A stretch of DNA of 64,000 bases from Syntrophales bacterium (GTDB taxonomy: Bacteria > Desulfobacterota > Syntrophia > Syntrophales > CG2-30-49-12). The stretch is taken from positions 33,290 through 97,289 of the forward strand of contig JASEGZ010000001.1 in NCBI GenBank assembly GCA_030018935.1, given 5' to 3'. Below, in pieces: positions 9,052 to 17,746 of this stretch. A program made the position numbers and the translations under genes. Within the stretch, counting starts at the first letter, position 1. Each line of letters opens with the position of its first letter. A model generated the notes under the pieces. That model worked only from the letters and a program-made list of their open reading frames with translations. It searched no databases and was not told the origin of the DNA.

Positions 9052-9144
9052 AGTAAACAAACCTCAAACTGGTGAATAAATCAGCGGTGGCGAGTTGGGA
9101 AGAGGGAAGAAAAGCCGCTATATGGACGCGCCCCCATGTTAGAG
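9052..9144 (-). other. attC-like site (most distal)
   Basis: Plus strand reads AGTAAAC ... aaatcagcggtggc ... gccgctatatgg ... GTTAGAG. The 14-nt inner arm aaatcagcggtggc is shared with the attC at 14901-14958. Confidence 0.5.
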
Positions 9145-9413
9145 TTTGTCGAGTGGCTTCAGCTATAAGAGTTACCTCCTATGGCTTCACTCCCAGCTAC
9201 CTGGATGAATGAGGAATTTCCAGGACAGGTCTCTCACCTGCAAGCCTTGAGTCCTCCACGGCGCACTTTTCCGCATCCGGCTCTTCAGGCAGGCTCACAG
9301 ATAATCTCTGATAGCCGAATCAGTTCCGTTCACAATGTTTCTCCAGGCTCTGTGTCCTGCATTGTCTCCCTTCCTCAGTACACCCGCCTGTCAACCCCTT
9401 CCCTCCACCGGCA

Positions 9414-9677
9414 TTACCCGGCTTCACCAGTACTATGGGTTGATCCGACTACTTGCGCCTTGTCCTTTTTCAGAAAGGAATATATTTGCAGCGCCGGGTA
9501 AATGATGCCTACGATACTGATTATGATCATCAAAGATGCGGAAAAAAATGTCATGACGAATTCAAAAGGGTTTTTCAGCTCATAGGAATTGCCAAGGTTG
9601 ACGATCCCAAAGGTCAGAAATAAAAGCGAAATTACGCCAAGTAAAGCATTTTTCATCCACCAGATAAACGATCCCAC
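9414..9677 (-). CDS. small membrane protein, unknown function (cassette ORF)
   Basis: 87 aa (GTG start; alternative ATG at 9654). Two hydrophobic helices (LLGVISLLFLTFGIV, SASLMIIISIVGIIY). No recognisable domain. Confidence 0.45.
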   Translation of the reverse strand: MGSFIWWMKNALLGVISLLFLTFGIVNLGNSYELKNPFEFVMTFFSASLMIIISIVGIIYPALQIYSFLKKDKAQVVGSTHSTGEAG

Positions 9678-9908
9678 TGTCCGTCCTTTCTTTTTGCCAT
9701 CTTACCAATAATCCTCAAATGAAGCAATCATGATATCCCTGTAAAAAAGGATAAAGCACTTTTGTTTAATTATTAATTTTGTTAGATGAAAGGGTAAAAC
9801 CCCTGTGTGTCTGGGGTTTCTGTTTTGTGATATAATTGACTACACCTACCTACAAGTCTACATATTTGAATATTTTAAAAAAGCGAAGATTACCAAAAGA
9901 AATAGGGA

Positions 9909-10000
9909 GGATAACGGTATCAGCATAAAAGAAGTTTTTGCGAAGCCAAAATGTGGGTGAACCCGCCTCTGGCGGACGAAGCTTTTATGCTGTGTTAGGC
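9909..10000 (-). other. attC site
   Basis: GGATAAC ggtatcagcataaaagaag ... gaagcttttatgctgt GTTAGGC, a 92-nt imperfect palindrome. Confidence 0.65.
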
Positions 10001-10060
10001 GATGCAGCGGGCTTTCTCTATTGTTCTTCATGATCATTTTCGTGATGCCCAACACGGCGA

Positions 10061-10111
10061 GCATAACCGGCTGGCAATGAAGCGCAGCGGAATTGCCAGT
10101 CCGAGTTGATG
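10061..10111 (-). other. attC site (short)
   Basis: GCATAAC cggctggcaat gaagcgcagcgg aattgccagtccga GTTGATG. Ends 7 nt before the stop of the 10118 ORF. Confidence 0.6.
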
Positions 10112-10117
10112 CGATTG

Positions 10118-14958: not shown

Positions 14959-15012
14959 GCTGATTATCTTCTGCCCTTTTCATAAAATCAATAATCAAGT
15001 CTGCCCCCCATC

Positions 15013-15564
15013 CTACCTACTTTCTTCGGAAACTTTTCCTCTCCTACTCTCTAATTCCTCCAAGACTGATTTGATAATTTCGGTAGAATTTTTTTCATCT
15101 AATGATCGGTACTCTTCTACCTTGCGTTTGAAAGCCTCTGTCAATTCACGAGCCCACTCTTCGGGTACATTTTCGCTCTTACATATTACCTTAATATCCT
15201 CCAAAAGCCTTTTGAATACTTCGTTCTCAAGTATTCCCTTACTTTTAAACATTATGTCTTTTCCAATTGCATAAGAAACAAGCATATATTTGGCCAACCT
15301 GTTAATCTCTTCGTTCTTGATTTTCAATATCGCTTCTAATGACTTTCTTCTCATGGCTTCATCTGAATGTTTTTTATATTTACCCATTGCGGCCCATATA
15401 AGGAGGATAGACCACACGATTGGCTTCAAAACCCAAATCCACCCGTAATCGACAAAGGGTCGCTCCGGGGGCATGCCAAAAATAGCATCCAATAAGATCG
15501 TGATAGAAAAACAGGCAATGAACCATGCAGCGAACCCCGCAAATTTATCGCTTATGTCTTCCAC
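15013..15564 (-). CDS. two-TM membrane protein with helical C-terminal domain, unknown function (cassette ORF)
   Basis: 183 aa with two hydrophobic helices (FAAWFIACFSITILLDAIF, LKPIVWSILLIWAAM) followed by a charged, coiled-coil-like region. Confidence 0.6.
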   Translation of the reverse strand: MEDISDKFAGFAAWFIACFSITILLDAIFGMPPERPFVDYGWIWVLKPIVWSILLIWAAMGKYKKHSDEAMRRKSLEAILKIKNEEINRLAKYMLVSYAIGKDIMFKSKGILENEVFKRLLEDIKVICKSENVPEEWARELTEAFKRKVEEYRSLDEKNSTEIIKSVLEELESRRGKVSEESR

Positions 15565-15617
15565 GTTATCTCTCTCCTTTTTGAAGCTCTGATTTGCTTT
15601 TTTGCGACAGGGTAATG

Positions 15618-15703
15618 GCCTAACGTAGAATTAAGCCGCCGGGCCGCTACCATGCTATGAACCACAAAGGGAATCCCCGGTCGGCTTGAATGACTGGTTA
15701 GAT
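15618..15703 (-). other. attC site
   Basis: GCCTAAC gtagaattaagccgccggg ... cccggtcggcttgaatgactg GTTAGAT. On the cassette strand the toxin stop codon TAA lies inside ATCTAAC, and the other box reads GTTAGGC. Confidence 0.75.
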
Positions 15704-16003
15704 GCTATCTATTCTCTTTTTTGTTAAGTTTGGACTTCTTTTGCCATGGATTACAGCTAAGACAGTTATTCTTTCTTCTTCAAGCAGATAGATTATTTTG
15801 TATGGAAACCTCTTGATGAGGTATTTTCTTGTTTCTTTATACTCTGCTGGACAAATCTTCGGATTTCTTTCTATGAATCTCAGCCCAGCATCAACCTGCA
15901 AAAGAAAGTCGTAGCCCAATCCTTGCCTTTTGTCTTCATACCAAGAGAAAGCTTCCTTCAGGTCATTTTCAGCCTCAAGCCTGATGATAACTCTATATCT
16001 CAT
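15698..16003 (-). CDS. RelE/ParE-family toxin
   Basis: Likely start MRYRVIIRLEAENDLKEAFSWY at 16003, a 4-nt ATGA overlap with the antitoxin stop. The ~100-aa size and the ...RFPYKIIYLLEEERITVLAVIHGKR ending are typical of ParE/RelE. Confidence 0.8.
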   Translation of the reverse strand: MRYRVIIRLEAENDLKEAFSWYEDKRQGLGYDFLLQVDAGLRFIERNPKICPAEYKETRKYLIKRFPYKIIYLLEEERITVLAVIHGKRSPNLTKKRIDSI

Positions 16004-16221
16004 TTTTTGCTCACTATTCTCTTGAAAACATCCTCCCACGGAGAACCTAAATCAGGATTCTGATGATACGCCTCTAATCTTTCATCGATTATCTTCTTTT
16101 CTTCTTCAGTTAATTCGACCGAGCCAGCTTCTACAGCTATCGTATCCCAAATGTCCTCTACCAGTTGAATTCTCTCTGGGATTGATAAATCAAGAGTATC
16201 AGTTACAGCAAGCGTTTTCAT
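16000..16221 (-). CDS. putative addiction-module antitoxin
   Basis: The track begins at TTG 16257. ATG at 16221 (MKTLAVTDTLDLSIPERIQLVEDIWDTI) follows AGGAGG. The pattern resembles the small 'addiction module component' family that pairs with ParE toxins. Confidence 0.7.
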   Translation of the reverse strand: MKTLAVTDTLDLSIPERIQLVEDIWDTIAVEAGSVELTEEEKKIIDERLEAYHQNPDLGSPWEDVFKRIVSKK

Positions 16222-16435
16222 AATCCATATCCTCCTTTTTTCTTTTTCATCTAACAATTAATATACGTAATGTCTTACATACTGCCCGATAGTCGTCATA
16301 TTTAAAAGAATGCAGCAAATTTAGACTGGTTTATCTGAAAAGTCAAAGAAATTTCTTTAAAATTTACCGATAATATGTTTATTATCACCCAATAAGTAAT
16401 CGGTATATTATCGACCCTTTAACAGGGAGCTGTTT
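16222..16435. promoter_or_regulatory. attI / divergent promoter region of the integron
   Basis: AT-rich 214 nt between the first cassette and intI. The minus-strand GTTAGAT core (plus ATCTAAC 16249-16255) sits at the first cassette junction. Inverted repeat ccgataatat / atattatcga at about 16365-16415. Confidence 0.45.
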
Positions 16436-17746
16436 GTGAAAGAAATTTTGCCTGATTTCCAAAAGTATCTTGTTGAACATAAGCTCGTACCAGAGGGGCA
16501 TGTTTCCTTTTATGCCTTGTGGACGAGCAAATTCCTTTTCTTTTCCAACAAGCATCAGGATAAATCAATAGTGCTTAGAAAGAGGCTTTTTCTTGATTCC
16601 CTGATGAAAGAGCAAAAGTTACAGGACTGGCAGGTGCATCAGGTGGAAAACGCCATCGGGCTTTATCTGAATCATTTTCTGTCCGGCGATGTTTCGTTAT
16701 TGTCACTAAATGCTGAACCCGTTTTTCAGAACAGGTTTCCGGATTATCAGGAAATGCGGGAGACGCTCCGGGAGGCGATAAGAATCAAACATTATGCCTA
16801 CAGTACTGAACGTACCTACATAGATTGGTTCCAGAGGTTTTATGCTTATGTTACCGCTATAAAAGGCAAAGATTGGCAAAAGGGTGGTGCTGATGAGACG
16901 GATGTCAGAGATTTCCTGAGTCACCTGGCCGTCAGGCAGAGGGTGTCATCATCTACTCAGAATCAGGCATTCAATGCTCTGCTTTTTCTCTTTCGGGAAG
17001 TACTCAAGATTAACCTCCAGGACCTCAGTAAAACAGTGCGGGCCAAAAGAGGGTCAAAGATCCCTGTCGTATTGACACAGGATGAAGTCAAACGGCTGCT
17101 TAACGAGATAGGGGGCAGAAATTTGCTCATCATCCAGATTCTGTATGGCACGGGCATGAGGCTCATGGAACTTGCCCGGTTACGTGTTCAGGATATCGAT
17201 TTCGGTCTGAATTCGATTATTGTCAGAGCAGACAAGGGGGACAAAGACAGGATGACCATCATGCCTGAATTCGTAAAAGAAAGCCTGAAAGAACATCTTT
17301 CCAGGGTAAGGAAATTTCATGAAAAAGACTTGGAAATGAAACATGGCGAGGTATATCTGCCGGAAGGTCTTGACCGCAAGTATCCGAATGCAGGCAAGGA
17401 ATGGGGATGGCAATATGCTTTTCCTTCGGCTACGCTTTCCGTCGATCCACGGACGGGGAAGGTGCGCCGCCACCATATAAGCCCCAGTTCCATACAAAAG
17501 ATAGTGGCGGCGGCGGTGAAAAAAGCGGGGATTGCCAAACATGCCAGTGTTCATACGCTGCGCCACAGTTTTGCCACACATTTGTTGATGAACGGTGTAA
17601 ACATCCGCGAGGTTCAGGAATTGCTCGGCCACAAGAACATTGAGACTACAATGATTTATACCCATGTTCTCAGGAATATGTCGAAAGCGCCGGAAAGTCC
17701 GCTGGACATACTCCTGCGGCAAGAGAAGGGGCATCCATCGCCATGA
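16436..17746 (+). CDS. intI: integron integrase
   Basis: 436 aa, GTG start after GGGAG. Tyrosine recombinase boxes ([28 protein letters not shown]) are present, plus the IntI-specific insertion [37 protein letters not shown] (IntI1: [37 protein letters not shown]). About 100-aa N-terminal extension relative to IntI1. Confidence 0.9.
   Translation: [436 protein letters not shown]

Follow-up and report, generated by a model that had tools for sequence, protein, structure and literature searches.

The 64,000-nt stretch of DNA analysed here (the window) almost certainly carries a complete integron at positions 10047-17746, made up of an integrase gene (intI), an attI recombination site and seven promoterless gene cassettes, each ended by an attC site. 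The host is an uncultured member of the Syntrophaceae and a close relative of the metagenome-assembled genome (MAG) Syntrophaceae bacterium CG2_30_49_12 (Thermodesulfobacteriota). An earlier note on this DNA had described a complete chromosomal integron, and that description is supported by the integrase itself, by attC matches to independent models and by the position of attI, which was pinned by strain comparison. The divergent intI/attI/cassette layout given in the note is also correct, and every cassette open reading frame (ORF) left of intI lies on the minus strand. The integrase gene and the attI region are as follows (a slash marks the crossover point here and below):

16436..17746, plus strand: intI, integron integrase (TIGR02249), 436 aa, GTG start
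16256..16435, no strand assigned: attI/intI intergenic region, 180 bp, with divergent promoter-like sites (promoter scan)
16249..16255, minus strand: attI core GTTAGAT, crossover between G16255 and T16254 (G/TTAGAT), from strain comparison

The product of intI scored 409 bits on the NCBIfam model TIGR02249, 'integron integrase' (cut-off 265), and 146-152 bits on the XerC/XerD models, far below their cut-offs of 330-335. Pfam domains Phage_int_SAM_4 (residues 108-195) and Phage_integrase (212-412) were detected, and the closest PDB structure was VchIntIA/IntI4 (2a3v; E 2.5e-75, query residues 110 to 424). This alignment spans the IntI-specific insertion (query 305-347) as well as every catalytic position. 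The catalytic residues R242, K267, H373, R376, H399 and Y408 are all present, and in an alignment of 25 homologues these residues and the insertion residues W325 and H346/H347 were invariant. The segment quoted in the earlier note as an IntI-only insertion does occur in the ORF and aligns residue for residue with the insertion of 2a3v, and the Xer-like identity that the note had named as the alternative is contradicted by the scores on both sets of models as well as by this extra segment. Neither a frameshift nor an internal stop interrupts the ORF, whose product is 45.9% identical to the class 1 integrase IntI1. Judged from its sequence, ORF 16436-17746 is an intact integron integrase of the IntI subfamily.

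Sites of attC type were searched for with covariance models (R1-R3) built solely from attC sites outside the window, reproducing the logic of IntegronFinder. R1 was made from 10 short, well-known sites (including those of aadA2, aadA13, aadB, catB8, aac(6')-IIa, aac(6')-Ib and blaOXA-732) at cassette junctions of four class 1 plasmid integron arrays, with the canonical R''-L''-L'-R' structure including two bulges. It recovered 4 further class 1 sites on which it had not been trained, 3 of them long (OXA-10 type, DUF3788, dfrA14). These were added to the R1 set to give R2 (14 class 1 sites), with which attC sites were detected upstream of intI in 40 loci. R3, drawn from class 1 and environmental integrons, comprised 53 sites, 0 of them from the window, and was run with filters off over the whole 64 kb on both strands (128 kb). 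Results showed exactly 7 significant matches, all on the minus strand and all within 5.7 kb (10047-15703), with E values from 6.5e-12 to 3.4e-4:

15618-15703 (86 nt), minus strand: attC1, R3 53.2 bits, E 6.5e-12
14901-14958 (58 nt), minus strand: attC2, R3 52.1 bits, E 1.3e-11
13704-13835 (132 nt), minus strand: attC3, R3 33.2 bits, E 1.7e-6
12726-12789 (64 nt; 12725-12789 by R3), minus strand: attC4, R3 24.8 bits, E 3.4e-4
12565-12660 (96 nt), minus strand: attC5, R3 41.4 bits, E 1.1e-8
10734-10865 (132 nt), minus strand: attC6, R3 37.1 bits, E 1.6e-7
10047-10123 (77 nt), minus strand: attC7, R3 32.1 bits, E 3.6e-6

The eighth-best match, elsewhere in the window, reached 10.1 bits (E 3.4) and is noise; chance would hardly place the seven best matches in one short stretch of one strand. 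R2, which holds class 1 sites only, ranked the same 7 sites on top, and with R1 (filters off) 4 of them were the top four matches and a fifth was among the weak ones; attC1 and attC2 reached 45 bits with the class 1-only models. An Rfam search gave no attC family match in the window, its sole match being the group II intron fragment described below. The site nearest to intI, attC1, is 733 nt from the intI start, and in 20 related loci every attC match was likewise upstream of intI on the opposite strand. The earlier note had counted about ten attC sites in the 9-16.4 kb region, where the independent models support seven. Five of the eight palindromes that it listed (15618-15703, 14901-14958, 13704-13835, 12726-12789 and 10735-10865) were exact and are significant attC sites. 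Its 10061-10111 is a real attC with wrong bounds (10047-10123 being the true ones), the real attC at 12565-12660 was missed, and the two leftmost palindromes, treated below, did not hold up as attC sites.

The seven sites share sequence only in their boxes and differ in length (58-132 nt). In the R3 alignments unpaired bases stood at both canonical bulges of the R''-L'' arm in 6/7 sites, only the first bulge being aligned in attC4; the first bulge was C in 5 sites and G in 2, and the second was A. On the bottom strand these bulges are the G/C and T extrahelical bases read by IntI, so that the recombining strand would be the plus strand of the window. Over 11 sites (the 7 described here and 4 from a sister strain, below) 96% of the L-box stem was paired, and 12 of 15 pairs showed compensatory changes. 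The stem covariation score was 0.54, as against 0.15 in shuffles (0/500 reached it) and 0.06-0.10 with slid partners. Individually, attC2 closely resembles the attC of blaOXA-732, attC1 resembles aadA-type attC, and attC7 has an R'' box (CCATAAC) that takes in the stop codon of the ORF before it, with GTTGGGC as its R' box. Two other approaches were discarded. A scan for RYYYAAC...GTTRRRY boxes with a folding filter gave similar numbers of candidates on both strands windowwide and was non-discriminating, and it was replaced by the covariance models; aligning the candidates of the window itself with MAFFT put their 3' ends out of register, the sites being so different in length, and was also circular, which is why external attC sites were used.

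The attI site was located by comparison with L005 (MNZP01000219.1), a sister strain represented by MAG Syntrophaceae bacterium CG2_30_49_12. L005 was 97% identical to window positions 16251-18411, and to the left of the GTTAG core the two sequences were unrelated. At base level they were identical through ...TAATTGTTAG and then diverged, with GTTAGAT in the window and GTTAGGC in L005, and homology with a second relative, L166, also began at 16252. The end of both homologies at this core fixes attI at 16249-16255, and the GTTAGAT that the earlier note had placed at the first junction on the cassette strand is thus confirmed as the exact point of divergence. The 6 nt after the attI G are complementary to the R'' box of attC1. 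Left of its core L005 carries 4 different attC sites. Because two 97%-identical platforms carry entirely different cassettes, cassettes have evidently been exchanged between very close strains, that is, by natural cassette turnover. The 180-bp intergenic region, nearly identical in L005, contains a candidate cassette promoter (Pc) found by promoter scan, TTGACT-17-TAAATT (16346->16318, cassette strand), which matches 9/12 positions of the sigma-70 consensus. Promoter-like matches in the attI-intI region were no more numerous than in shuffles.

Cassette ends were set by the crossover G/TT in each R' box, which gave sizes of 631, 717, 1197, 978, 161, 1831 and 687 bp for cassettes 1-7:

15624..16254, minus strand: cassette 1 (631 bp), toxin-antitoxin pair and attC1 (Pfam, NCBIfam), with a TIGR02574/Unstab_antitox antitoxin (ORF 16000-16257, likely ATG 16220) and a ParE-family toxin (15698-16039)
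14907..15623, minus strand: cassette 2 (717 bp), 183-aa protein (ORF 15013-15564), no confident family match, and attC2
13710..14906, minus strand: cassette 3 (1197 bp), two ORFs (translation) and attC3 (attC search), the first of 155 aa with no function assigned (14427-14894), the second a putative lipoprotein (13844-14368, likely start 14251; lipobox in translation, MKRFLLIVLSFIIAGC)
12732..13709, minus strand: cassette 4 (978 bp), DUF2971 protein, PADLOC candidate defence protein PDC-S31 (12795-13691; E 9.2e-37), and attC4
12571..12731, minus strand: cassette 5 (161 bp), ORF-less, with attC5 and nested inverted repeats
10740..12570, minus strand: cassette 6 (1831 bp), type II restriction-modification pair (Pfam, PADLOC) and attC6, with an N6/N4 DNA methyltransferase (11486-12463; PF01555 E 2.1e-43, PADLOC MTase_II) and an EcoO109I-family endonuclease (10867-11706, likely ATG 11622; PF14511 E 4.6e-88)
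10053..10739, minus strand: cassette 7 (687 bp), two overlapping ORFs and attC7, the ORFs being one of 69 aa (10500-10709) and a DUF6036-like nucleotidyltransferase (10118-10597; weak match, E 0.0017)

Every one of the seven cassettes shows full complementarity between its first 6 nt, counted from the upstream G/TT, and the R'' box of its own attC, a property that circularising units should have; this 7/7 count takes attC6 to end at 10734 and is 6/7 otherwise, and the chance of such complementarity given the TTRRRY consensus is 1/16 per site. The rule was perfect in 3/4 cassettes of L005, with 5/6 matches in the fourth. The earlier note had the ORF stop codons 0-10 nt from a box or inside it, which is true of 5/6 cassettes with ORFs and fails for cassette 2, whose stop is 55 nt before the box. 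No attC was found between the two ORFs of cassette 3 in the covariance-model searches. With the other integron loci compared, the array shares only distant protein relatives of the toxin-antitoxin pair, the methyltransferase and the nucleotidyltransferase (a homologue of the last being in integron locus L018); one attC piece is 82% similar in locus L035.

Further details were observed in cassettes 5 and 6. The R' box of attC5 is ATTGGGC, with ATT instead of GTT at the crossover. Cassette 5 also has a second R''-L''-like arm, CGTGAAT GCCGAGTTGAGCT (12712-12693), whose match to the L'-R' arm of attC5 is perfect; it may be left over from a half-site, or may form a competing fold that does not recombine. 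In cassette 6, an 18-nt tandem duplication AAACCAATAACCAAAGAA (two copies, 11584-11622, minus strand) directly follows the likely ATG of the endonuclease, and there the methyltransferase ORF continues for ~137 nt in another frame.

By analogy with established integron biology, the bottom strand of each attC, which is the plus strand of the window, would fold into a hairpin, and IntI would recognise its paired R/L boxes together with two or three extrahelical bases. Recombination between two attC sites would release cassettes as circles, attI x attC recombination would put them back at attI, and those at attI would be read from a promoter in the attI-intI region, for which TTGACT-17-TAAATT (16346->16318) is the candidate.

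Several points weigh against this picture of a complete, working integron. The Pc is a candidate, with only a 9/12 consensus match. Recombination activity is inferred from intact motifs and the strain comparison, and the element is best called apparently functional. Among the attC sites, attC4 is weak (24.8 bits) and its second bulge falls on the other arm in a DNA fold, while the ATT core of attC5 may cripple that junction; moreover, the alignment used for counting pairs was fitted to the model structure, which favours pairing. Finally, the distal 1.1 kb (8930-10046), with a palindrome, an 87-aa ORF and an intron fragment, is unexplained by seven cassettes.

It could be argued that the palindromes are unrelated intergenic repeats (repetitive extragenic palindrome-like sequences or terminators) beside a Xer- or phage-type recombinase with no cassette function. 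The R-box consensus is indeed short and palindromic, and the crude scan for boxes plus hairpins found comparable numbers of candidates on both strands. Models made from experimentally known attC sites, however, matched the array only, on one strand and with the canonical bulges; the stem shows compensatory covariation, the cassette-specific R'' complementarity is perfect (7/7), and the recombinase is above the integron-integrase threshold and below the Xer thresholds. We therefore regard the unrelated-repeat explanation as having a negligible chance of being right. The extent of the array is a less settled matter. The earlier note had carried it to 9052, whereas the supported array ends at 10047; beyond that end lie:

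9909..10000, minus strand: attC-like palindrome with R-like boxes and an 11-bp perfect stem, fold z -2.97
9414-9677, minus strand: 87-aa membrane-like ORF, no family match
9134-9243 (110 nt), minus strand: group II intron domain 1 (D1) fragment (Rfam RF02003, 57 bits)

The array may have held more than seven cassettes, with 9909-10000 a decayed eighth attC and the stretch to ~8930 the remnant of further cassettes, attC having been lost, for example, by insertion of a group II intron followed by deletion. We consider this possible although doubtful. Its R-like boxes and stable hairpin (z -2.97) speak for the palindrome, and so does its R'' box GCCTAAC, which is 5/6 complementary to the TTGGGC adjoining attC7; in addition, GC content is cassette-like (~44%) down to ~9000, the backbone common with the relative L086 begins only at ~8925, and insertion of group II introns into terminal cassettes is a known occurrence (PMC3001079). 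On the other hand, beyond its two 7-nt end boxes 9909-10000 matched nothing in the model (7.1 bits, E 2.6 in a 7.8-kb search), it has no extrahelical bases and its spacers of 1 and 5 nt are abnormal, and no attC-like site was found in 8800-9900 by the covariance models. The other palindrome of the earlier note, 9052-9144, gave no model match, folded no better than shuffles (z -0.31) and overlaps the intron fragment. That fragment is ~800 nt past the last supported attC and has the orientation of the cassettes, in contrast to group IIC-attC introns, which occupy the bottom strand (PMC3001079); being on the wrong strand and not within a recognisable attC, it was rejected as an intron of that kind. 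Neither intron domains D5/D6 (Rfam, even at E <= 1) nor a reverse-transcriptase ORF was found with it. The palindrome at 9909-10000 and the 87-aa ORF, both located between attC7 and the backbone common with L086, may be decayed cassette remnants.

The integrase is ~106 aa longer than usual at its N-terminus, and the added part has its own fold:

16436..16690, plus strand: extra N-terminal four-helix domain, IntI residues 1-85 (profile, hhalign, fold comparison)

A variable linker follows, to about residue 106 (window to 16750). The extension is kept in >100 homologues of 60-98% identity, from MAGs labelled Thermodesulfobacteriota/Syntrophales, Nitrospirota, Omnitrophota, Planctomycetia, Ratteibacteria and Aegiribacteria. 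A Pfam search of the N-terminal 106 aa gave no match, and homology became visible only by profile and fold comparison. The profile of the domain matched residues 7-84 of IntI4 2a3v (E 0.0029), and hhalign aligned it in register with the integrase's own SAM-like domain (E 3e-4). AlphaFold modelled it as a confident four-helix bundle (pLDDT, the predicted local distance difference test, 90), with IntI4 2a3v and XerA 5hxy as the top Foldseek matches. Because the profile match, the in-register alignment, the predicted bundle and the fold matches agree, the domain is, by homology and predicted structure, a tandem duplicate of the SAM-like core-binding subdomain of the same integrase.

The integron lies among housekeeping genes, with selA, rluD and rho on one side and a purF-like gene, carB and a radical-SAM gene on the other. 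Directly after intI stands a further gene:

17743..19323, plus strand: PIF1-like helicase gene with a C-terminal WYL domain (PF05970 E 5e-27, PF13280 E 1e-6)

The helicase start and the intI stop overlap (ATGA), and the gene adjoins the integron, its membership in the element being uncertain. Among the loci compared it is full length only in the window. The L005 helicase (5123-5860) has an internal deletion of ~836 bp (at L005 5790/5791, relative to window 18411-19248), and helicase stubs of 33-40 codons follow intI in L165 (11326-11448) and L166 (3630-3731). Beyond the helicase deletion the identity of L005 to the window falls from 97% to 85%. A general intI-helicase association was rejected, being confined to the subclade with at least 80% IntI identity (3/80 loci). 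The stubs and deletion suggest an ancestral intI-helicase pair from which the helicase is being lost, and translation of intI and of the PIF1-WYL helicase gene may have been coupled in the ancestor of the closest subclade.

This coupling forms part of a further interpretation, in which the N-terminal duplicate and the helicase are functional parts of the recombination machinery and constitute a distinct variant of the mechanism, perhaps on a mobile segment. We think this very unlikely. If it were true, the extra domain could make additional DNA contacts, for example by arm-like binding in attI or at the attC variable loop, and the helicase could generate or resolve single-stranded attC hairpins. 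The question of mobility arises from a perfect 67-bp direct repeat at 8739-8805 and 24181-24247 (~80 bp if a 3-nt indel is allowed), which is the 3' end of the radical-SAM gene (24179-25450). The 15.4-kb segment between the repeats (8806-24180) holds the integron, the PIF1-WYL helicase gene, the purF-like gene and carB. A tRNA gene as the target that gave rise to the repeat was rejected; ARAGORN found none in the window, and the repeat is the radical-SAM 3' end.

From this arrangement one could suppose that the integron is not simply sedentary, and that it rides in the repeat-bounded segment or that an attI-intI-helicase module has moved between genomes; we judge this improbable. The segment has the perfect repeat at both ends, and in >20 relatives the radical-SAM gene, selA and rluD are contiguous without it. 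For a mobile module, IntI relatives of 81-86% identity stand in unrelated contexts, one of them beside a DDE transposase, and nucleotide homology in those relatives is limited to the stretch from about attI through ~70 nt past intI. Against a mobile segment, the housekeeping genes carB and the purF-like gene are inside it; neither a transposase nor a tRNA was found in it, and IntI is its sole recombinase; close relatives showed no empty site; and L086 has a decayed copy of the radical-SAM stub with yet another upstream context, which points to an older chromosomal rearrangement here. The 15.4-kb segment may reflect either an integrated element or a chromosomal rearrangement.

Two other observations concern the surroundings. 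Just outside the radical-SAM 3' stub, upstream of selA, there is a sigma-70-like sequence TTGACC-17-TATATT (8888-8916, minus strand; 10/12), conserved in L085 and L086, which may have taken over as the selA promoter once the rearrangement had occurred. The GC skew of the plus strand is negative across the array, and its cumulative minimum falls at the intI/attI region (~16000-17000), near which gene orientation switches; this minimum could reflect a replication origin nearby or simply the change of gene strand. If the local skew reflects replication, the attC bottom strands would lie on the leading-strand template, which is the usual arrangement in chromosomal integrons (PMC5371416).

Taken as a complete integron, the element adds a cleanly delimited, apparently functional example from an uncultured syntrophic lineage of Thermodesulfobacteriota, for which comparison of strains places the attI crossover at an exact base and gives direct evidence that cassettes turn over in nature. 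Its toxin-antitoxin, restriction-modification and PADLOC candidate cassettes agree with the current picture of integrons as reservoirs of defensive and stabilising functions, in which toxin-antitoxin and defence cassettes figure (PMC10661359; 10.1101/2024.07.02.601686), and leave that picture unchanged. For work on site recognition by integron integrases outside Proteobacteria, the N-terminal domain duplication and the helicase gene that overlaps intI are inexpensive leads.

We class the element as a small, complete chromosomal integron, an ordinary member of a well-known type. A large sedentary chromosomal integron would have >~20 cassettes with highly similar attC sites, as against seven with heterogeneous attC here. 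Inheritance at the same locus is also unsupported, with IntI relatives (81%, 86%) in unrelated contexts and most relatives having the radical-SAM gene adjacent to selA with no integron between. Since these two features fail, it is not a large sedentary chromosomal integron, despite its chromosomal housekeeping-gene setting. The marks of the mobile classes 1-5 are absent too, IntI1 being 45.9% identical and no transposase, plasmid or resistance genes adjoining.

With the Vibrio cholerae integron (VchIntIA/IntI4) and other sedentary chromosomal integrons the element has in common its chromosomal location, an intI divergent from the array, the IntI insertion and catalytic residues, toxin-antitoxin and defence-type cassettes and, as far as the GC skew indicates, attC bottom strands on the leading-strand template. 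It differs in having 7 cassettes where those have tens to hundreds, in its heterogeneous attC sites (58-132 nt) as opposed to the homogeneous V. cholerae repeat (VCR)-like family of V. cholerae, in the different genomic loci of its closest IntI relatives (81-86%) and in the ~106 extra N-terminal residues of IntI. Class 1 mobile integrons are similar in architecture, short array and heterogeneous attC, and models made from their sites alone find attC1 and attC2 (45 bits). Their IntI1 is, however, only 45.9% identical, their Tn402/Tn21 context, 3' conserved segment and resistance genes are absent here, and their Pc lies inside intI, whereas the candidate here is intergenic. The intron fragment near the distal end of the array is in the usual place of group IIC-attC introns, but it lies on the top (cassette) strand, outside a recognisable attC, and is a 110-nt D1 piece only. 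As for the integrase, its long form has been known since 2008, when Nemergut et al. (PMC2426708) described deltaproteobacterial 'clade 15' IntIs as ~120 aa longer with a shared conserved N-terminal addition, which their account of the clade calls a gene fusion and in which the nature of the added part is not described. The IntI of the window belongs to this long form, which is also found in MAGs labelled with phyla other than that of the clade 15 Deltaproteobacteria, and the addition, there a gene fusion only, is identified here, from profile and fold comparison, as a duplicate of the core-binding subdomain.

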